This document shows, in pieces, positions 10,267-18,303 of a stretch of 18,342 bases of DNA. The DNA is from a virus. Position numbers and translations under genes: made by a program. Within the stretch, counting starts at the first letter, position 1; every line of letters starts with the position of its first letter. The notes below the pieces were generated by a model that was not told where the DNA came from, searched no databases, and saw only the letters and a list, made by a program, of their open reading frames with translations. The DNA is taken from the UHGV virus genome UHGV-1773631; one strand, 5' to 3'.

Positions 10267-12147
10267 TTAATCAAAAGTAAAACCAAGCTCAGTAGCGTTT
10301 TCATAAATATATTGTTTGCGGGGTTCTACTTTAACTCCCATTAAAATTTCAAGTAATTCATCTGCTTTTTCTGCATCACTAATAGTAATTCTTTTATAGC
10401 GTTCTTGCTCAAAGCAGACTTTCTGAAGATCACGTGCATTTAACTCGCCCAAACCCTTCGCTCTTACTAGCTCATAAGTGCCTTGATGCTGAGTTTTCCA
10501 CTCTTCAAGTTCTTCATCAGTATAAGCATAGTATTCATTATTCTTCTGACGAATAATGTACAAAGGAGTAACTGCTCTATAAAGCTTTCCTGCTTCGACT
10601 AAAGGCCGCATATAAGTAAAAAAGAATGTAGTTAAAAGTAACTCAATACTAGCTCCATCAGAATCTGCATCCGAAGTAATTACGATTTTATCAAATTGCA
10701 TTTTATCTATATCAAAAGTTTTATCAAAACCTCCACCAATTACTTTAATAATATCGGAGATTTCTTGATTAGCAAGAATCTTTTCAACAGATTGTTTTCT
10801 AGGGCTAATAGTTTTGCCTTTTAACATATAAATACAATCTGTTTTGGGATTCCGTGCTTCAACGGCAGAAGATCCTGCGCTTAGACCCTCGACTAACAGT
10901 AAATTACGCTGGCTTGGATGTTTATTTGTGCAATCAATAAATTTATTACTTAAAGCAACTTTAGCTTTAAGACCAGTTTCTTTTTTGCCCTTATCTCTAA
11001 CAGCTTCTCTAGCTTTTCGAGCTGCTTCTCTAGCTTTTCGAGCATTAATCGCCTTATCCGCGATTTTCTTTATTTCTTTTTCATTTGCTTCAAACCAATA
11101 CTGTAATTCTTGTGCAATAATTCCTGCGAAAGGGTGCATATCAATTTTAACAATTCTACTTTTGGTCTGAGCGTCATAAGCTATACCAGGAGCGGTAATA
11201 TTAAACACTAAATATAATCCTTCTTGGCAATCATCACCGGATAAATTACTATCCTTTTCTTTCAGCCAACCTTTATCTCTAAAAAACTTATTCATTTCTC
11301 TTGTTAGAATAGTTTTAATTTGAGTAATGTGCGGGCCAGTGTCAGTAAGTCCTGTATTAACATAAGGAACAATAGTAGAAAAATATTTATCAGTATAAGT
11401 TAATACTAAATTTAATTCATTCTTATTATCTTTAAAATCAATTTTAAGTCTATTTTTAATAATTTCGCTATTTTTGTCTACAGTAGAATCAACCAAATCA
11501 GTTAATCCATTCTTAGAGAAAAAAGTTTTTTCATTTAAAGTAATAGTTAAACCTGGACATAAACAAACTAAAACTTCAAAAAGATTATTAATAATTTTTA
11601 AATCTACTTCTGGGTGAGTAAAAAATTCTTCACTCGCTTGCCAAGTAACAACAGTACCAGATTCTTTATCATTTTTTACTTTACCAGTTTTGCGGTTTTT
11701 GAAAATTCCTTCTTCAAAAGAAACTTCTTCAAAGTTTCCTTTTTGATAACTAAGTACCTTTGTCCAATGACTTAAAAATACAACTAACTTACTGCCGATT
11801 CCGTTTAGACCTAACGCGGTACCTTCATAAACACCATCTTCAGTATATTTACCAGAGGTGTTAAGCACACTAAAAGCAGCTTCAAGAATTGTTTTTCCAT
11901 CTTCTCTAGTGGAATTAATTAAAAAACCTTGCCCATTATCTTTAACTGTAATTACATTATTATCTGAAATAGTTACATTAATTTCAGTGCAATGACCTGC
12001 TTTAAACTCATCAACTGCATTAGAAACAATCTCAATTAATAGCTGAGTTGAATATTCAGTAGAACCAACATATACTCCAGGTCTAAGTCTTGTAAATTCT
12101 AACGGAGTAAGACTTTGAATTGAATCTTTATTATATAAATTATTCAC
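10267..12147 (-). CDS. type II DNA topoisomerase, B subunit (GyrB/ParE-like ATPase plus TOPRIM)
   Basis: 626 aa; LEFTRLRPGVYVGST, EIVSNAVDE and DNGQG (GHKL ATPase N-box/G1), TOPRIM-like EGLSAGSSAVEAR and ITSDADSDG. Contains a duplicated AREAARKAREAVR segment. Confidence 0.85.
   Translation of the reverse strand: MNNLYNKDSIQSLTPLEFTRLRPGVYVGSTEYSTQLLIEIVSNAVDEFKAGHCTEINVTISDNNVITVKDNGQGFLINSTREDGKTILEAAFSVLNTSGKYTEDGVYEGTALGLNGIGSKLVVFLSHWTKVLSYQKGNFEEVSFEEGIFKNRKTGKVKNDKESGTVVTWQASEEFFTHPEVDLKIINNLFEVLVCLCPGLTITLNEKTFFSKNGLTDLVDSTVDKNSEIIKNRLKIDFKDNKNELNLVLTYTDKYFSTIVPYVNTGLTDTGPHITQIKTILTREMNKFFRDKGWLKEKDSNLSGDDCQEGLYLVFNITAPGIAYDAQTKSRIVKIDMHPFAGIIAQELQYWFEANEKEIKKIADKAINARKAREAARKAREAVRDKGKKETGLKAKVALSNKFIDCTNKHPSQRNLLLVEGLSAGSSAVEARNPKTDCIYMLKGKTISPRKQSVEKILANQEISDIIKVIGGGFDKTFDIDKMQFDKIVITSDADSDGASIELLLTTFFFTYMRPLVEAGKLYRAVTPLYIIRQKNNEYYAYTDEELEEWKTQHQGTYELVRAKGLGELNARDLQKVCFEQERYKRITISDAEKADELLEILMGVKVEPRKQYIYENATELGFTFD
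10965..11006. repeat. tandem direct duplication (2 x about 21 bp) inside the topoisomerase B gene
   Basis: GCTTCTCTAGCTTTTCGAGC occurs at 10965-10984 and again at 10986-11005; in frame, it encodes the duplicated AREAARKAREA peptide. Confidence 0.6.
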
Positions 12148-12634
12148 CCAATACCTCCTTAACAGTCACTCTACCAGTAGCTAAATCATCAGCAAGTTCA
12201 TTGCCTTCAATACCAGCATGACCTTTAATTTTTCTTAAATCAATCTTTCTATTCCATTTATTATATATTATATCATAAAATTTTATTAAATCCAAATTTT
12301 CAGGAGTCGATTTATCTGCTTTCCGCCAATTATTATTTTTCCACCTGTACATCCAATCATTGAAAGTATTTACGCAATATAAAGAATCTGTATAAACAAT
12401 AGGATAAGTAAAAGAATCCGCTGAAACTCCATAGTTATACAAAGCCCAAAGAATAGCTTTCATTTCTTCTCTGTTATTTGTAGTTCCAATAGTTTGATGA
12501 GCAAAAGCATCTACTAAATGTAAATTTTTGGGGTCTTTAAGATACTTGTAAACAACTACTCCATAACCTCCAGAAGCATCTTTACTACCATTTTTTAAAG
12601 TTGAGCCATCAGTGTAAATAATAGTACCTATGAT
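12140..12634 (-). CDS. rnhA: ribonuclease H (RNase HI-like); start codon non-canonical or gene disrupted
   Basis: The track ORF 12140-12463 starts at an internal Met (MKAILWAL...GHAGIEGNELADDLA). The same frame is open upstream to a TAA at 12635-12637 and encodes the essential N-terminal motif (I)GTIIYTDGS...TNNREE. The only in-frame candidate starts near the RBS GGGAG (12641-12645) are ATC (12632-12634) and ATA (12629-12631). Confidence 0.65.
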   Translation of the reverse strand: MIGTIIYTDGSTLKNGSKDASGGYGVVVYKYLKDPKNLHLVDAFAHQTIGTTNNREEMKAILWALYNYGVSADSFTYPIVYTDSLYCVNTFNDWMYRWKNNNWRKADKSTPENLDLIKFYDIIYNKWNRKIDLRKIKGHAGIEGNELADDLATGRVTVKEVLGE

Positions 12635-12791: not shown

Positions 12792-13133
12792 TCAAATCGG
12801 TCCAAAAACGTCCGGTTCATCGGAAGAAGTGGGCGTTTGTGGCGTCAGATTATTCATCACAGTTTCATATTTTATGCCATTTTTAGTATTCTCACGAGTG
12901 GCTTTATTGTAATAAAAAGCTTGACTAACTGCATAAGCAGCCCAAGGTAAACTGGCTTCCGCAGCCAACCAAGGCAAAGAGCCAGTAAATCCTTCGTGAA
13001 TGCAATAAAATGCTAGAATAATATGAGCAAGAGAATGAACCCATATTAAAGCAGATTCTTGAGCTAAAAGGACTTTTGAAAATTCTTTTTTCTTTTTTCT
13101 TTTGTTTCTATTTTTTTTAACGAAGCTTATCAT
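12792..13133 (-). CDS. putative holin-like small membrane protein
   Basis: 113 aa; two hydrophobic helix-length segments (ALIWVHSLAHIILAFYCI and SLPWLAAEASLPWAAYAVSQAFYY), highly basic N-terminus, overlaps the 3' end of the endolysin gene by 17 nt. Assignment rests on position and topology only. Confidence 0.4.
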   Translation of the reverse strand: MISFVKKNRNKRKKKKEFSKVLLAQESALIWVHSLAHIILAFYCIHEGFTGSLPWLAAEASLPWAAYAVSQAFYYNKATRENTKNGIKYETVMNNLTPQTPTSSDEPDVFGPI

Positions 13134-13905
13134 ACAATCTCTTCATTATAGTGACGCCTTCTAGTCTGGTTAAAAACTTATTAGGCATTAATTTGCCAGT
13201 TTCGTCACCTTTAATTAGTCCCATAGAAACTGCCCAATTTAATTCATCTTTGCCCCAATCAGCATTTTGCTTAGCTAATTGAACTAAATAATTATTCATC
13301 ATTTCATTAAATTTTTCTTGAGTCATATCTTCATCCTCCTCTTGTTTAATTGTAGGTTTATTATTATTTGTTTTAGGTTTTTCAATTATAAAGTAATATT
13401 TTACCTGTTGTTTGAAAAGACTATAATTACCTCTAGTGCGTGCGGTTTTTGTGCTGTTAGGGTCATTAATATAAATAGTGTTTCCTTGAATATTCCACAC
13501 TAAAATGAAATGACCACTACTTGTCCATAATCCTTTGCCCATACAAGCTATAACTAAATTACCTTTATCAATTTCAGCTTTTGCTAAATTATGATATTTA
13601 CTAGAACTATTACCATAAATATTTGCACCATTCAACATATAGGCTGTTAAACCGTATCGTGCAGCAGCAGGCTTAAAATATCCATAATAAGTTCCTTGGT
13701 GAGGGGCTTTATAACCATGTGTTAAAGCCCAAGCACATTCAGTTTTTGGAGTAACTTTTTTATCTGCCCATGTAGCTAAAACCATAGACATTGCGGTGGG
13801 GCCACACCCAGAAGCGCCGATTGTAGTTGATTCACCTTTTGCTGAATAGCTAATATTTTTCCATCTTGCGTCTGTTTGTAGATAAGATACAGGCTGTGTA
13901 TTCAT
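13117..13905 (-). CDS. endolysin: papain-like cysteine peptidase (C39-like) with C-terminal SLH-like cell-wall-binding domain
   Basis: N-terminal half has a Cys...His pair in a C39-like context (GASGCGPTAMSMVL ... SGHFILVW); C-terminal WAVSMGLIKGDETGKLMPNKFLTRLEGVTIMKRL matches the SLH consensus. Start placed at the second ATG (13905; RBS AAAGGAGA about 7 nt upstream); the track ORF begins 6 nt earlier at 13911. Confidence 0.65.
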   Translation of the reverse strand: MNTQPVSYLQTDARWKNISYSAKGESTTIGASGCGPTAMSMVLATWADKKVTPKTECAWALTHGYKAPHQGTYYGYFKPAAARYGLTAYMLNGANIYGNSSSKYHNLAKAEIDKGNLVIACMGKGLWTSSGHFILVWNIQGNTIYINDPNSTKTARTRGNYSLFKQQVKYYFIIEKPKTNNNKPTIKQEEDEDMTQEKFNEMMNNYLVQLAKQNADWGKDELNWAVSMGLIKGDETGKLMPNKFLTRLEGVTIMKRLYDKLR

Positions 13906-13933
13906 ATACATTCTCCTTTCTTTTGTTTTAAAA

Positions 13934-13962
13934 AAAGAGCTAGGATTTTATCCTAGCTCTTT
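13934..13962 (-). terminator. putative intrinsic terminator between the PhoH-like gene and the endolysin
   Basis: 13-bp perfect inverted repeat AAAGAGCTAGGAT / ATCCTAGCTCTTT (13934-13946 with 13950-13962), followed on the minus strand by TTTTTT; T-rich on the plus side too. Confidence 0.6.
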
Positions 13963-13970
13963 GATTATTA

Positions 13971-15242
13971 TTAAATTAATTCTGCAAGTTCTGTTATTTT
14001 AGATCTATGGATATTATTTAAAGTTACTTCTCCATAAATATCAGAACCTCTAAAAATTTTAGACATTCTTCTCATACCATTGTTATTACCAGAATAAGCT
14101 AATGAGTCAACTTGCGTTTTAGCATCACCATCAATAATACAAATACAATCTTCACCAATACGTTGAAGAGCTAATTTAATTAAAGTTCTATCTAAATTTT
14201 GTGCTTCTGTTATATAAATACCTGCGTTCATTCCGCTAGTATCGTAACCTCTAATATCGCTAAAAGGCAATAAAACTAATTTATCTTCTTCCATCATACG
14301 AAGAACACCTTCTTTACCGCCTAATTTGGCGGAAAGCATATTACCAATTTGCGAGTCAAGTAATTTATCGTCTTTTGTACCTGGGTAAAACCCTAATTTA
14401 GCGGAATTAATAGTTGCCACTGTATTACAAAAGATTATAATTTTATCTATTCTATTTTTTTCTAACATATACATTAAAAAAGCTAGAGAAATGTAAGATT
14501 TTCCTACTCCTGCTGGGCCTTGTAGCAAAGTAATTTTATTATTAGCTAAACTATCAAAAGCGCATTTTTGATATATATCTCCTTGATATGGTTGTACTTT
14601 TCCAAACCAGGTAGAATCAAAAGTAGGAAATTTTAAATAACGATAAGTTTCTCCTGTCCAAACCCGCACATCTATAAGTTCATCAAAATTATCAGGATTT
14701 TTTAAAAGTAGATATTCTCCTTTTTTAAGATTAAAATGATTATAGTTAGGATTTTCATAAAATTCAGAAATTAATTCTTCACTAGCAGTAATTTCTGCAA
14801 TTCCACTATAAGTATCTAAATCTTCTTCAATAGAAGAAACATTTTCTTTGGGAAACAAACATAAAGCAATATGTTTTAAACTTAAATCATTAGTTATAAA
14901 TTCTAAACATTTATTTGTTTCAAATTCATTCCAAGCATCAGACAAAATTCTAGCATCATCATTAATATCAAAATTCATTTTATCTAAAATGTATTCATAA
15001 TTTGTTTGATGAATTTTAACAGAATAATTATTTGGATATTTTTCAAATAAATGAAGCAAAAGTCTTGCGGAATATTTTATATCAGAATCTTTATTTGCCG
15101 CAGTTTTAATTCTTTCTAACTCTTTTAAAGTAATAGAAGAAATGATAAATTTTTCATTATCTTCAAAAGCTGATTCTCCGGCTAATAAAAGACTACAAGT
15201 ATCGTAGAATTTAATAATAATTTCCACTCTCCTATTGTTCAA
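13971..15242 (-). CDS. PIN-domain / PhoH-like ATPase fusion (PhoH2-like)
   Basis: 423 aa; N-terminal PIN-like acidic motif (IIKFYDTCSLLLAG), Walker A LLQGPAGVGKSY, PhoH-type IIDGDAKTQVD and NNIHRSKITELAE. Confidence 0.8.
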   Translation of the reverse strand: MNNRRVEIIIKFYDTCSLLLAGESAFEDNEKFIISSITLKELERIKTAANKDSDIKYSARLLLHLFEKYPNNYSVKIHQTNYEYILDKMNFDINDDARILSDAWNEFETNKCLEFITNDLSLKHIALCLFPKENVSSIEEDLDTYSGIAEITASEELISEFYENPNYNHFNLKKGEYLLLKNPDNFDELIDVRVWTGETYRYLKFPTFDSTWFGKVQPYQGDIYQKCAFDSLANNKITLLQGPAGVGKSYISLAFLMYMLEKNRIDKIIIFCNTVATINSAKLGFYPGTKDDKLLDSQIGNMLSAKLGGKEGVLRMMEEDKLVLLPFSDIRGYDTSGMNAGIYITEAQNLDRTLIKLALQRIGEDCICIIDGDAKTQVDSLAYSGNNNGMRRMSKIFRGSDIYGEVTLNNIHRSKITELAELI

Positions 15243-15693
15243 ATAAGATAAAATAATAATTATTTATGGCCTTTCTTTGTCTTTTTAGAGAAGTAATTAC
15301 TTTACTTTGAGCTTTTAAATATGTATTTAATTCTTTTTCTTCTGTTTTAATATAACCCAAATATTTATTAATTTGCCGTTTTAACCTTACTATTTCTTTA
15401 ATGACAATGATATACTCACATTTTTTATTTTCTCTTAAAATATCGTTATAAAATCTTTTTACAGCGTTATATTCGATATTAGTTTTTTCTTTAATATCTT
15501 TTAAAGCATTAATAATTGCTCTTTTGTGAGCTATTGTTTGACCTACTTTGGTTGAGAAAAAGTCCATATCATCAGAATGACAAGTAGCAATCCCAGTATA
15601 GTATTTTCGTTCATAATAAATTATTGCCTCAATTGAATTATTTGTGTAATTAAATTCTACGGGTAAAAGATTAATTGTTTTTCTTAGACTCAT
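15232..15693 (-). CDS. hypothetical protein (153 aa)
   Basis: ORF from the track with RBS AGGAGAA and a promoter upstream; overlaps the PhoH2-like start by 11 nt (probably translationally coupled). No motif recognised. Confidence 0.4.
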   Translation of the reverse strand: MSLRKTINLLPVEFNYTNNSIEAIIYYERKYYTGIATCHSDDMDFFSTKVGQTIAHKRAIINALKDIKEKTNIEYNAVKRFYNDILRENKKCEYIIVIKEIVRLKRQINKYLGYIKTEEKELNTYLKAQSKVITSLKRQRKAINNYYFILFEQ

Positions 15694-15723
15694 TAAAATT
15701 CTCCTATCTTATTTTATATTATA

Positions 15724-15752
15724 ATTATATCATAAATTCTGAGAAAAATAAA
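15724..15752 (-). promoter_or_regulatory. putative promoter with extended -10 for the ORF 15232 / PhoH2 unit
   Basis: Minus strand: TTTATT (15752-15747), 17-nt spacer, TGATATAAT (15732-15724), about 30 nt upstream of the ATG at 15693. Confidence 0.4.
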
Positions 15753-15780: not shown

Positions 15781-15857
15781 AGAGGCGCGAAAATTCGGCG
15801 ACACGGGCCGCCACGAATATGCACGAAGACCCTAGAGTAAAAGCACTCTAGGGTCTT
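15781..15857. other. GC-rich intergenic island ending in a strong stem-loop (terminator-like or structured RNA)
   Basis: About 55 bp of roughly 60% GC (GAGGCGCGAAAATTCGGCGACACGGGCCGCCACG...) in an otherwise AT-rich region, then a perfect 13-bp inverted repeat AAGACCCTAGAGT / ACTCTAGGGTCTT (15826-15838 with 15845-15857, loop AAAAGC). The T-rich tract follows the hairpin on the plus strand, opposite to the genes. Confidence 0.4.
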
Positions 15858-15861
15858 TAAT

Positions 15862-16407
15862 TTATTGTTTAATTTTGTTTTTAATATCCTTAATAATTGA
15901 ATCAATAGAAACAGGAAAATTATTATGAGCATCCAATTCTACATGATAAATAAGACCTTTATCCCAATCCGCAAAAGCGTCCTGACTATGAGAGTGTCCG
16001 CACATACTAATCATTCTTGCTTTAAGAGGTTTCTCATTATCAAAATTACTACAAAGTGTAGGATAATGGCTTAAATAAAAATGATATTTACCATATCTTA
16101 GAAATTGACCTTCAGTTACTTTAATAATATTGTTACAATTATTATATAAATTTACACGAACTTCACTATCATGGTTTCCTCTAATTACATAAATTTGTCC
16201 TTTTAACTGTTTAATTTTTTCAATTCCTGCTTCATTATCATTTAGCATTAAATCGCCAAGCACATAAATTTTATCATTAGGACGAATAATTTTATTCCAA
16301 TTTTCAATAATTGCGTTATCATGTTCTTGAATATTCTTAAACCCTCTTGGTTCATAAAGAAAGGGCTTATTATGGCCTAGATGAAGATCACTGGTAAACC
16401 AAACCAT
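15862..16407 (-). CDS. calcineurin-like metallophosphoesterase
   Basis: 181 aa; metal-binding motifs DLHLGH, VLGD, RGNHD and GHSH characteristic of binuclear metallophosphoesterases; begins 2 nt after the stop of the upstream kinase gene. Confidence 0.75.
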   Translation of the reverse strand: MVWFTSDLHLGHNKPFLYEPRGFKNIQEHDNAIIENWNKIIRPNDKIYVLGDLMLNDNEAGIEKIKQLKGQIYVIRGNHDSEVRVNLYNNCNNIIKVTEGQFLRYGKYHFYLSHYPTLCSNFDNEKPLKARMISMCGHSHSQDAFADWDKGLIYHVELDAHNNFPVSIDSIIKDIKNKIKQ

Positions 16408-16409
16408 TA

Positions 16410-16922
16410 TTACACCTCCTCAGTATAATGTAAAATAGTATTCACATTATGAAAACCCCAATCAAGATATTTATTCATCTCATCTTTAGAAGGAATAGAA
16501 GATTTAAAATAAAAATTTTTTATTGCTTCTTCTGGAACTTTAGCGAAACCTTCTCTTTCAGAATTTCTTCTTAAAGCAACATCTAAAAGAATAGGAAAAT
16601 AATCAAAAGTAAGATTAATATTATTCTTATCTTTCAGATTAAAAAAATTGTTTAAAAGTTTAGCTCTTGAAGAAACATCAATATGAGTTGCATCTATATA
16701 AATATTTTCTACATTTTCTTTAATTGCAATTCTAATATTTGCAATCATTTCTTTATATACCTGTTTTTCTTTACTAAAATAATTTTTTCCAGGATTTTCG
16801 CCTATATAATTCTTGCGGATTTCATCTCTTGAAATAATTTTACCATTCTGTTGTTTTGCCCAAGTAGATTTGCCGGAAGCAGGAATACCACAAAGAATAT
16901 GCAAATTAATCATAAATACCAA
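16410..16922 (-). CDS. P-loop kinase, polynucleotide kinase (T4 Pnk)-like
   Basis: 170 aa; Walker A GIPASGKSTWA followed by SRDEIR, paralleling T4 Pnk kinase GCPGSGKSTWA ... NRDDYR. Confidence 0.6.
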   Translation of the reverse strand: MVFMINLHILCGIPASGKSTWAKQQNGKIISRDEIRKNYIGENPGKNYFSKEKQVYKEMIANIRIAIKENVENIYIDATHIDVSSRAKLLNNFFNLKDKNNINLTFDYFPILLDVALRRNSEREGFAKVPEEAIKNFYFKSSIPSKDEMNKYLDWGFHNVNTILHYTEEV

Positions 16923-17199
16923 ACTCCTTTACATAAGAAATACTATTTTGTGCTTCTTCTTTAAAAAGACCTTCTTCAAAATCTAGTTTAAAATTATATG
17001 CTTCTTCATCGTTTCTACATTCTACCATATTAACAGTTTCTTTACAATGAGGGCAATACATAACTTTCTTATGCCCAACTTCTCTAAAACGTCCTCTTAA
17101 TCGAGGAATTGACATTGACTTCTTTCCGCAATTCATACAATAAAAATCGTGCATTTCATATTTTCTAGGGTCTTTAGACATTTTTATCAAACTCCTCAA
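16906..17199 (-). CDS. hypothetical zinc-ribbon protein
   Basis: 97 aa; two CxxC pairs (CMNCGKK ... CPHCKE). Function unknown. Confidence 0.4.
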   Translation of the reverse strand: MRSLIKMSKDPRKYEMHDFYCMNCGKKSMSIPRLRGRFREVGHKKVMYCPHCKETVNMVECRNDEEAYNFKLDFEEGLFKEEAQNSISYVKEFGIYD

Positions 17200-17578
17200 T
17201 TTGTTTTTTTACAATTTCAAAATATTCTTTAAGTTCTTTTCTTTCTTTTTCTGTATTTATTTTTTTAATTTCTGTCTTTTTCCAAATTTTATATTTTAAC
17301 ATTTCTACATAATTTGTAAAAATAATACGTATATTATTGTCTGTTAAATATTTTCGTGTAGAGAAAGGCTTTGAAAAAACAACCGAATATTTTTGTAGTT
17401 CATAATTTTCTGGACTTAAATTATAGAAAGAAATAAATTCTTTTAATTTTAAAACTACATATTTATGTTTCCTTACAATTTTACAATCTAGTTTATATTC
17501 ATCATAATCATATATAAAACAACCTAAAATTATTACTCCAGTAAAAGGTAATGTTAATCCTAGTATTAATAGTACCAT
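17174..17578 (-). CDS. hypothetical membrane protein
   Basis: 134 aa; N-terminal hydrophobic segment MVLLILGLTLPFTGVIILGCFIY, then a Lys/Glu-rich soluble region. Confidence 0.4.
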   Translation of the reverse strand: MVLLILGLTLPFTGVIILGCFIYDYDEYKLDCKIVRKHKYVVLKLKEFISFYNLSPENYELQKYSVVFSKPFSTRKYLTDNNIRIIFTNYVEMLKYKIWKKTEIKKINTEKERKELKEYFEIVKKQIEEFDKNV

Positions 17579-17580
17579 AA

Positions 17581-18303
17581 TTATTCTCCTTGAGCAGAAA
17601 AGATATGTTCATCAAAAGTATCTAAATCAAAAAGGATAATTTGCTTACTCCAATGAGTACCTAAATCAAGATTAACCTTTTGATTATTATTATACCAACA
17701 AGCTCCACCTTCATATTTGGGAGGATTGCGAAATTCTCCTATATCTTCTATCATTAGAGGAATTGGGGTATGGCCATGAATAATTAATTCATTTGGATTA
17801 ATTAAACATCTAAATTTATAATGTAATCTATTCCAAAGAAAATCAAATTCATCACCAGAAATATTATTAGGAGAAAAACCTGCATGACTTAAATGAATTT
17901 TAATTCCATTTTTATTAGTGTATTGTTCATAAACTGGAAGTTTATTAATTAAATTTAAATACTCAATAACATTTTTTTCTTTAGACCAGTCTAGTAAAGT
18001 AGATAAACCTCCATTATTCATGTGACGATAAATATCATCTCCATATAGACATCTTTCATTTTTTAAAAATTCTCTTCCAGAATCTACTAACATTTGTTCA
18101 TGATTTCCTTTAAGAAGAGTAAATCTTTCATCTTTTAAAATTTCTTTAAGTATTTTCCAACCTTCTGTCCCTCTGTCAATTACATCACCCAGCACGAACA
18201 CTTTATCTTCTGCTTGAATGAAATTTTTAATCTGCTTAAACAAATTTGAATTACCATGAAGGTCAGTAAAACAATAAACTTTACCCTTATTCATAAACAT
18301 CAA
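17581..18303 (-). CDS. Ser/Thr protein phosphatase, PPP family (lambda phosphatase-like)
   Basis: 240 aa; canonical PPP motifs in order: DLHG (CFTDLHGN), GDVIDRG, GNHE. RBS AAAGGAA upstream. Confidence 0.8.
   Translation of the reverse strand: MMFMNKGKVYCFTDLHGNSNLFKQIKNFIQAEDKVFVLGDVIDRGTEGWKILKEILKDERFTLLKGNHEQMLVDSGREFLKNERCLYGDDIYRHMNNGGLSTLLDWSKEKNVIEYLNLINKLPVYEQYTNKNGIKIHLSHAGFSPNNISGDEFDFLWNRLHYKFRCLINPNELIIHGHTPIPLMIEDIGEFRNPPKYEGGACWYNNNQKVNLDLGTHWSKQIILFDLDTFDEHIFSAQGE

Follow-up and report, generated by a model that had tools for sequence, protein, structure and literature searches.

Introduction

Among the "auxiliary" genes that phages carry, PhoH is one of the most widespread, and its role in infection has not been established (PMC7824862). 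In the virus genome UHGV-1773631, that of an uncultured phage of the gut, one such gene, which fuses a PIN domain to a PhoH domain (PhoH2-type; positions 13971..15242, minus strand), lies directly behind a small gene, here called A (15232..15693, minus strand). (The window analysed is a stretch of 18,342 nucleotides from this genome; coordinates given without a locus name refer to it.) A sequence-only reading of the window had placed both open reading frames (ORFs) correctly, and had taken them for a coupled two-gene module, with reference to bacterial PhoH2 proteins that a small upstream gene restrains. The analysis described below finds a two-gene cassette, which is likely co-transcribed, and no demonstrated toxin-antitoxin pair. 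The explanation favoured here, with somewhat less than even confidence, is that an ordinary phage PhoH2 RNA helicase-nuclease is co-expressed with an independently acting nucleotide or RNA binder of Acb4-like fold, in a block that also holds RNA-repair-like genes.

Loci fetched for comparison are designated by L numbers. L001-L003 come from cultured phages; the relatives of the window are IMG/VR contigs of ~75-150 kb together with two ~148 kb contigs in Eubacterium and Oscillospiraceae bins of metagenome-assembled genomes (MAGs).

The PIN-PhoH protein

The larger gene has a maximal ORF of 423 aa, running from a TTG at 15242 to a TAA stop at 13973-13971. Numbered from this TTG, residues 225-416 (13995..14570) match the Pfam family PhoH (PF02562, 3e-25, which passes the cut-off) and residues 14-127 (14862..15203) match PIN_4 (PF13638, 3.1e-5, 24.7 bits against a cut-off of 21.9); the protein aligns end to end with phrog_2765, "PhoH-like" (5.9e-71), and matches the solved PhoH structure 3b85 at 4e-15. 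In an alignment of ten sequences, E41, D96 and D119 of the acidic PIN tetrad are invariant and D14 is nearly so (E36, D91, D114 and D9 when numbered from the GTG discussed below). The same alignment shows invariance of the Walker A core G..G.GK (GPAGVGKS in the window), of E-A-Q-N in Walker B (TEAQN) and of G-D..Q.D (GD..TQVD). The canonical Asp of Walker B is replaced by Thr in the window and by Ser, Val or Leu in relatives, and is a residue other than Asp across the phage clade. A tblastn search of GenBank phages finds PhoH2 homologues in 119 records, 50 of them over the full length, at 34-40% identity; these belong to Tsamsa-like Bacillus phages and to phages of Enterococcus, Geobacillus, Alicyclobacillus and Lactococcus, and some are already labelled "PhoH2 superfamily RNA helicase-ribonuclease". 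Against the NCBIfam equivalog for the cellular "RNA 5'-3' helicase PhoH2" (NF053827), the window protein scores 78.5 bits where the cut-off is 680. Together with the membership of phrog_2765, this score argues for a PIN-PhoH protein of the phage clade and not for an orthologue of the cellular enzyme. Judged by its sequence, then, the large ORF is an ordinary phage-clade (phrog_2765) PIN-PhoH fusion with its PIN acidic residues and P-loop motifs intact, and its first identification as a PhoH2-type protein is confirmed.

Mycobacterial PhoH2 combines a PIN RNase with an ATP-dependent RNA helicase that has a 5'-3' preference, and it has a small co-transcribed partner, PhoAT (PMC7390352); the precedent on which the sequence-only reading drew is therefore a real one. 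By analogy with this enzyme, the PhoH ring of the phage protein would bind RNA, translocate along it or unwind it with ATP, and pass it to the PIN endoribonuclease; during infection such an activity would most plausibly serve the turnover or processing of host or phage RNA.

In two divergent phages the PhoH2 gene is interrupted at the same profile column (279, near position 14390 of the window), in each case by an insert with a LAGLIDADG homing endonuclease ORF (L004:6868-8136 and L043:7511-8801). The Rfam scan, which covered the L004 insert only, found sub-threshold pieces of Intron_gpI at both of its ends, and these features indicate that the L004 insert is a group I intron. The window carries the intron-less allele.

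The gene A family

Gene A has an ATG start and a TAG stop and encodes 153 aa. It is a real gene, as had been proposed: it belongs to a conserved family of phage proteins of ~150 aa, and the AlphaFold2 (AF2) model of the full-length protein is confident (mean pLDDT, the predicted score in the local distance difference test, 88.9; 36-sequence alignment). A single-sequence search of a database of 5.8 billion proteins returns only A's own cluster, and the family is reached by profile alone; it was built by phmmer against the ORFs of related contigs, followed by profile searches. In this way 72 clusters were found in a word-indexed database, and 856 representative clusters at E<=1e-3 (268 at 1e-10), nearly all of them 135-170 aa long, with no Pfam domain or informative name among them. 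The family has so far been seen only in contigs of ~140-150 kb from uncultured phages. The GenBank phages gave no tblastn match for A or for the family members P0214 and P0006, and a scan of genome contigs found A in two phage-sized MAG contigs only. Searches of Pfam, NCBIfam, PHROGs and PADLOC with A gave nothing usable, the only matches being weak ones to phrog_32438 and LmuB, and searches of Protein Data Bank (PDB) sequences with A profiles returned coiled-coil noise or nothing.

A also evolves far faster than its neighbour: in the same genome pairs, A is 25-32% identical where PhoH2 is 62-66% identical. Such a rate fits a protein that faces conflict, but it fits antitoxins equally well, and so does not discriminate between the readings considered below.

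Predicted fold of A and its likeness to Acb4

The AF2 model of A opens with a short helix, which is followed by three strands and then a helix (residues 1-47 onward); beyond these come a long helix at 48-88 and, at 94-152, a return helix. [quoted passage not shown] (This hairpin was compared with Sequestin, PF21825, and the other families tested, and matched none of them.) A Foldseek search with the full-length model places Rv1738 at the top (E 8.6e-3, TMt 0.62), followed by generic hairpins, with a dsRBD among the matches. Because the full-length search was swamped by helical hairpins (CorA, ESCRT-III, p85 iSH2), the N-terminal domain was modelled alone (pLDDT 89.6). Its best PDB match is Acb4 of phage SPO1 (9e4w; E 2.5e-3, probability 1.0, TMq 0.71-0.72, TMt 0.60-0.66), followed by Rv1738, Rv2632c and many dsRBDs, and, low in the list, by the ribosome-binding protein HI0257. 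Acb4 (SPO1 gp1.3; PF13876, Phage_gp49_66) is a tetrameric protein of 96 aa with a dsRBD-like protomer, which acts as a sponge for cGAMP-type signals of the cyclic-oligonucleotide-based anti-phage signalling system (CBASS) (bioRxiv 10.1101/2024.12.30.630793; PDB 9e4w). In the model, the N-terminal domain of A has the three-strand dsRBD-like core fold of this protein.

The sequence profiles hint at the same likeness to Acb4. An hhalign comparison of the N-terminal domain with an Acb4/Sf6-gp66 profile, which is shallow at six sequences, aligns 41 columns (P 8.8e-4, probability 23%); the alignment is in the structural register, runs over beta2-beta3-loop-alpha2, and yields the common motif G-x-[AS]...[DE]..F...[VI]G..[IT]A.S.A. 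Seven residues of A (G34, D42, F45, S47, G51, A55 and A59) are invariant in all 36 aligned sequences, and A36 is invariant too in smaller alignments. They are located in the loop and helix start that in Acb4 build the ligand pocket, and of the ligand contacts of Acb4, F62, N63 and I66 fall opposite F46, S47 and V50, which are conserved in A, whereas the guanine contacts have no conserved counterpart. In the same motif region, three members of the A family give sub-threshold matches to PF08962 (Rv2632c-like; E 0.05-0.24). Extra extensions and helical fusions are known among proteins of the Acb4 family. On the strength of the model, A is best compared with the Acb4/Rv2632c-like dsRBD-fold group, of which it would be a divergent relative, or at the least an analogue in structure, extended by a helical hairpin.

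The junction between A and PhoH2

The idea of a coupled pair had been built in part on an 11-nt overlap between the end of A and the start of PhoH2. This overlap depends on the TTG at 15242, which has no purine-rich tract or Shine-Dalgarno sequence before it. An AGGAG at 15233-15229, which overlaps the TAG stop of A, is located 7 nt before an ATT at 15221, the same spacing as that between the AGGAG of A (15701..15705) and its ATG, and 1 nt before a GTG at 15227. PhoH2 homologues start M-K-F-Y-D-T, M-N-K-F-Y-D-T or L-I-K-F-Y-D-T, at the position of I-I-K-F-Y-D-T in the window. With its Shine-Dalgarno sequence missing and the homologues starting further downstream, TTG 15242 is rejected; the true start of PhoH2 is probably ATT 15221 or GTG 15227, and the AGGAG at 15229..15233 would be its Shine-Dalgarno sequence. 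With either start the coding overlap vanishes, and the TAG stop of A falls inside the PhoH2 ribosome-binding site. Support for an ATT start comes from the RNase H gene of the window (12140-12634, minus strand), which has no ATG, GTG or TTG ahead of the sequence encoding the catalytic YTDGS, and instead has GGGAG followed by ATC-ATA. The RNase H gene of a relative (L004:9900-10412) shows the same arrangement. This suggests that non-canonical AUH (Ile-codon) translation starts are plausible in this phage.

The tight packing of the two genes is itself private to the window. In L004, which is 98% identical, the A/PhoH2 junction has 40 extra bases, bounded by a direct repeat of TTATTTTAT, and gene A ends ...AINN-TAA, well before PhoH2; this ending is the consensus C-terminus of the family. 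In the 90% cluster of A, all 15 of the listed members are 145 aa long, and the 153-aa form of the window is absent from the collection. The comparison with L004 and the 145-aa cluster members indicate that the last eight codons of A (YYFILFEQ, 15235..15258), and the tight junction with them, arose by a private deletion of 40 nt that took out the ancestral TAA stop and the spacer, and do not reflect a conserved design. The 11-nt overlap is thus best regarded as an artefact, of a TTG without a Shine-Dalgarno sequence and of a deletion, which would be a recent one, between two TTATTTTAT repeats.

The TAG stop of A is of separate interest. In relatives of the window, TAG codons stand in frame where PhoH2 has an invariant Gln (EA*NLD, KT*VD and FY*NP, the asterisk marking the TAG), and also within a lysin; the sites are at L006:1975-1977, L014:6454-6456, L025:6355-6624, L031:6157-7086, L035:3136-3138 and L046:722-1606. 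The in-frame TAGs at invariant Gln indicate TAG-to-Gln recoding in this phage clade. The window has no in-frame TAG in any gene, and A is its sole ORF with a TAG stop (15232-15234); if this TAG were read as Gln, A would extend to the TAA at 15213-15211 (161 aa).

Transcription of A and PhoH2

Signals that could delimit a transcript surround the two genes. Behind the upstream metallophosphoesterase gene there is a strong hairpin (15825..15858; 14-bp stem, dG -22.2 kcal/mol, z -6.3), with no clear U-tract on the minus strand, and PhoH2 is followed by an intrinsic terminator (13934..13962; 13-bp stem and U7, dG -19 kcal/mol, z -7.5). A σ70-like promoter candidate 5' of A, TTCTCA-16-TATAAT (15718..15745, minus strand), has 10 of 12 matches and a fitting position; the promoter scan as a whole, in this AT-rich DNA, did not rise above chance (13 sites against 14.2 expected). 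The two hairpins and the promoter candidate bracket exactly A and PhoH2, and the hairpin and terminator scan found no terminator-like site between the genes. As far as can be judged from these elements, A and PhoH2 are likely co-transcribed. The proposal of a shared promoter gains a well-placed candidate, together with bracketing hairpins, from a scan that is not above chance overall. An internal promoter at 15242..15214 was also considered and rejected, since its -10 element is downstream of the likely start codon of PhoH2.

Distribution of A, B and PhoH2 in related phages

Profile hidden Markov models (HMMs) of A, of PhoH2 and of a third gene, B, were run on all fetched loci. Nearly every A contig with enough downstream sequence has the order A-B-PhoH2 (L005-L025, L029, L035/36, L038-L040, L043-L045 and L047). 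L033 has an 89-aa gene in B's position, L031 has A and PhoH2 with B not detected, and A is followed by PhoH2 without B in the window and L004 only. A is found without PhoH2 in L037, where it is followed by genes for a 120-aa, a GIY-YIG and a GyrB-like protein, and in L046, where a lysin gene comes directly after A; B is absent from both. Conversely, PhoH2 is found without A or B in L028 (49% identity) and in the cultured phages L001-L003. Strict co-occurrence of A and PhoH2 as a unit is thus not seen: the pair is syntenic in most relatives, usually with B in between, and L037, L046, L028 and L001-L003 break it.

B encodes 64-91 aa, with a hydrophobic helix at the N-terminus, a further helix that is amphipathic, and a conserved tail, ...AIGF...EEE, that is acidic (examples are L005:5742-5975, L009:5742-5975, L016:5766-5996, L024:713-877, L035:1938-2213 and L044:5353-5592); it is predicted to be a membrane-anchored, acidic-tailed small protein, and has no family assignment. 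The stop of B overlaps the start of PhoH2, whereas spacers separate A from the next gene, so that B and PhoH2 look like a tight unit and A like a looser, separable neighbour. In many relatives a gene for an SPFH/Band_7 (flotillin-like) protein of 323-498 aa, which is absent from the window, is located directly upstream of A (L005:3567-5063, L009:4099-5070, L035:1-1287 and L043:4331-5824). The clade as a whole is collinear, in the order kinase, phosphoesterase, ..., (SPFH), A, B, PhoH2, lysin, RNase H, topoisomerase, and adjacency alone is accordingly no proof of functional coupling. The distribution points to A, B, PhoH2 as the ancestral arrangement in this phage clade, with B probably lost in the window.

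What the two genes may do

Under the favoured explanation, in which an ordinary PhoH2 is co-expressed with an independent binder, A would most likely be a stand-alone oligomeric protein that binds a nucleotide-type ligand, as an Acb4-like immune-signal sponge does, or RNA; its fold, its motif and the distribution of the gene all suggest such a role. That A acts independently of PhoH2 is argued by its retention without B and PhoH2 in L037 and L046, and by the presence of PhoH2 without A in L028 and the cultured phages. The two genes would then be expressed together as members of one and the same block for host takeover or counter-defence. Several observations weigh against this explanation. A does not conserve the residues through which Acb4 contacts guanine (K36, F48 and E49), and PF13876 gives no match at E<=10 to A, to nine full-length members of its family or to five N-domain fragments (the gathering score is 27 bits, and SPO1 Acb4 itself scores 35.5 bits). 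The hhalign probability is low and the Foldseek E-values are modest; moreover, A exceeds Acb4 by ~55 residues and has a hairpin that may preclude an Acb4-type tetramer. The role of PhoH in phages is itself still called enigmatic (PMC7824862). Finally, distant A sequences (profile E ~1e-14 to 1e-20) still stand in the order A-B-PhoH2 in contigs where some of the flanking genes have changed, and this persistence amid changing neighbours would fit a functional complex too.

Such a complex is the main rival, though an unlikely one in our view. A, in relatives joined by B and perhaps by the SPFH protein, would be a dedicated partner of PhoH2, whose dsRBD-like domain recruits structured or double-stranded RNA and whose hairpin docks on the PhoH2 hexamer, and so targets or gates the helicase-nuclease. 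Its fold also matches true dsRBDs, such as that of ILF3 (3p1x, TMt ~0.6), the two genes probably share one transcription unit, their adjacency (mostly with B between) holds in nearly all A contigs of sufficient length, distant members included, and the preferred substrate of mycobacterial PhoH2 is double-stranded RNA with an overhang (PMC7390352). A dedicated subunit, however, should not be kept by two lineages (L037 and L046) that have no PhoH2, nor be missing from the many phages that have PhoH2; the adjacency may be inherited with a collinear region and not selected, and it is B, not A, that overlaps PhoH2. A more novel reading, to which only a small chance is given, holds that A-(B)-PhoH2, often behind the SPFH/flotillin-like gene, is a conserved phage module for counter-defence or host takeover, in which an Acb4-like binder of a nucleotide signal or of RNA, together with B, controls or targets the PIN-PhoH protein. 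What remains of the coupled two-gene module first proposed is a likely shared transcript and a synteny across a wide clade; the overlap has gone, and A and PhoH2 are separable.

It is improbable that A resembles PhoAT or VapB and, as an antitoxin whose translation is coupled to that of PhoH2, holds a toxic PhoH2 in check, the model to which the coupled module of the sequence-only reading leads. Besides the mycobacterial PhoAT-PhoH2 precedent (PMC7390352), this proposal can call on the tight packing in the window, where the TAG stop of A is inside the PhoH2 Shine-Dalgarno sequence, and on the rapid divergence of A, which resembles that of antitoxins. But the overlap is private to the window, and each gene is found without the other. 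In relatives it is B that occupies the PhoAT-like position, and B is missing from the window. No assignment to toxin-antitoxin or defence systems comes from PADLOC or NCBIfam. A as a VapB-type antitoxin is also rejected on the AF2 and Foldseek results, which give a dsRBD/Acb4-like domain with a hairpin and no AbrB, ribbon-helix-helix (RHH), Phd or helix-turn-helix (HTH) domain; nothing, then, indicates that A restrains PhoH2. Very unlikely, finally, is a ribosome-directed role, in which A would be a host shut-off factor like hibernation-promoting factor (HPF) or Rv1738 and merely syntenic with PhoH2. Rv1738, which has been described as resembling hibernation factors, is the top match of full-length A and a strong one of its N-terminal domain, the ribosome-binding HI0257 appears low in the Foldseek list, and a nearby Zn-ribbon gene (97 aa) matches phrog_1257, "ribosome associated inhibitor A". 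The likeness is at the level of the fold only, however, with no link in sequence, and true HPF has the topology beta-alpha-beta-beta-beta-alpha. A resemblance to hibernation factors has also been remarked for Acb4 itself (bioRxiv 10.1101/2024.12.30.630793).

PhoH2 is itself ordinary, the toxin-antitoxin reading that made the locus attractive is unsupported, and A is modestly interesting. Through the A family, the Acb4/Rv2632c-like dsRBD-fold group would gain ~850 clusters, unannotated and from uncultured phages, and if its members bind immune nucleotide signals, the known repertoire of viral sponges would be larger. A clade in which A and B, both small and conserved, accompany PIN-PhoH as partners also provides a concrete set of proteins for joint testing. 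Were the A-(B)-PhoH2 module real, it would give phage PhoH genes their first functional context, and the Acb4 sponge superfamily a new, hairpin-bearing branch.

Genomic surroundings

The substantial ORFs of the 18.3-kb window are on the minus strand throughout and encode phage functions. Among the products are a DnaB-like helicase, a Sak4-like recombinase, a thymidylate synthase, an ATP-dependent ligase, RNase H and two topoisomerase II subunits; a holin-sized protein and a C39-like/SLH lysin serve lysis. The A-PhoH2 unit is placed between these lysis and replication genes and an RNA-repair-like cluster on its 5' side (15862-18303, minus strand). This cluster encodes a metallophosphoesterase of 181 aa, a protein of 170 aa that resembles AAA_33/polynucleotide kinases, the Zn-ribbon protein mentioned above, a protein of no assigned family (134 aa) and another metallophosphoesterase, of 240 aa; it may serve to counter defences that cleave tRNA or RNA.

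The lysin (13117-13911, minus strand) has a Peptidase_C39_2-like cysteine peptidase domain and an S-layer homology (SLH) domain. This combination points to an S-layer-bearing host, probably a member of the Clostridia, which is consistent with the Eubacterium and Oscillospiraceae MAG bins of related contigs. A megablast search of GenBank phages with a 4-kb region gave no nucleotide match.

Comparison with known systems

With type II VapBC systems the locus has in common a PIN nuclease encoded behind a smaller gene in one operon; unlike them, its nuclease is fused to a helicase-like ATPase, A lacks a DNA-binding fold of the antitoxin type, and the two genes do not strictly co-occur. Mycobacterial PhoH2 and PhoAT (PMC7390352; Andrews & Arcus) come closer, since there too a PIN RNase is fused to a PhoH ATPase and accompanied by a small, co-transcribed upstream gene. 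However, the window protein falls far below the NCBIfam equivalog cut-off for the cellular enzyme (78.5 against 680 bits), and the upstream protein here, A, has 153 aa and a predicted dsRBD/Acb4-like fold, overlaps PhoH2 in a way that relatives do not share, and is not obligatorily linked to it.

On the side of A, the Rv2632c-like proteins and Rv1738 (PF08962; PDB 2fgg and 4wpy) are similar in fold (TM ~0.6) and in the weak, sub-threshold PF08962 matches of the A family, all of which are far below the gathering score; they are cellular mycobacterial proteins without the helical hairpin. SPO1 Acb4 shares with the modelled A a core of a three-strand sheet and a helix, the motif in the beta3-helix loop, its origin in a phage and the existence of variants with extensions, whereas A fails the PF13876 HMM, lacks the guanine-specific contacts and adds a helical hairpin of ~90 residues.

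The nearest relatives of the window's PhoH2 among cultured phages are the PIN-PhoH proteins of phrog_2765, which include Izhevsk gp230, one of those labelled a PhoH2-superfamily RNA helicase-ribonuclease, and those of Tsamsa, Enterococcus phages EF1/H1, Geobacillus phage E3 and Alicyclobacillus phage KKP_3916. They share its full-length two-domain architecture, at 34-40% identity, and its motifs, including the non-Asp Walker B (x-EAQN), but they are encoded without A and B. In two of the three cultured-phage loci examined, those of Bacillus phage Izhevsk (L002, 2684-7051) and KKP_3916 (L001, 2601-6407), an HU-like (Bac_DNA_binding) gene is instead located directly upstream of PIN-PhoH, and tRNA arrays follow 0.2-1.6 kb downstream (~0.25 kb in Izhevsk; ~1.6 kb, with two coding sequences between, in KKP_3916). 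The tRNA arrays and the HU-like gene around PIN-PhoH in these phages hint that it may take part in the processing of tRNA or RNA.

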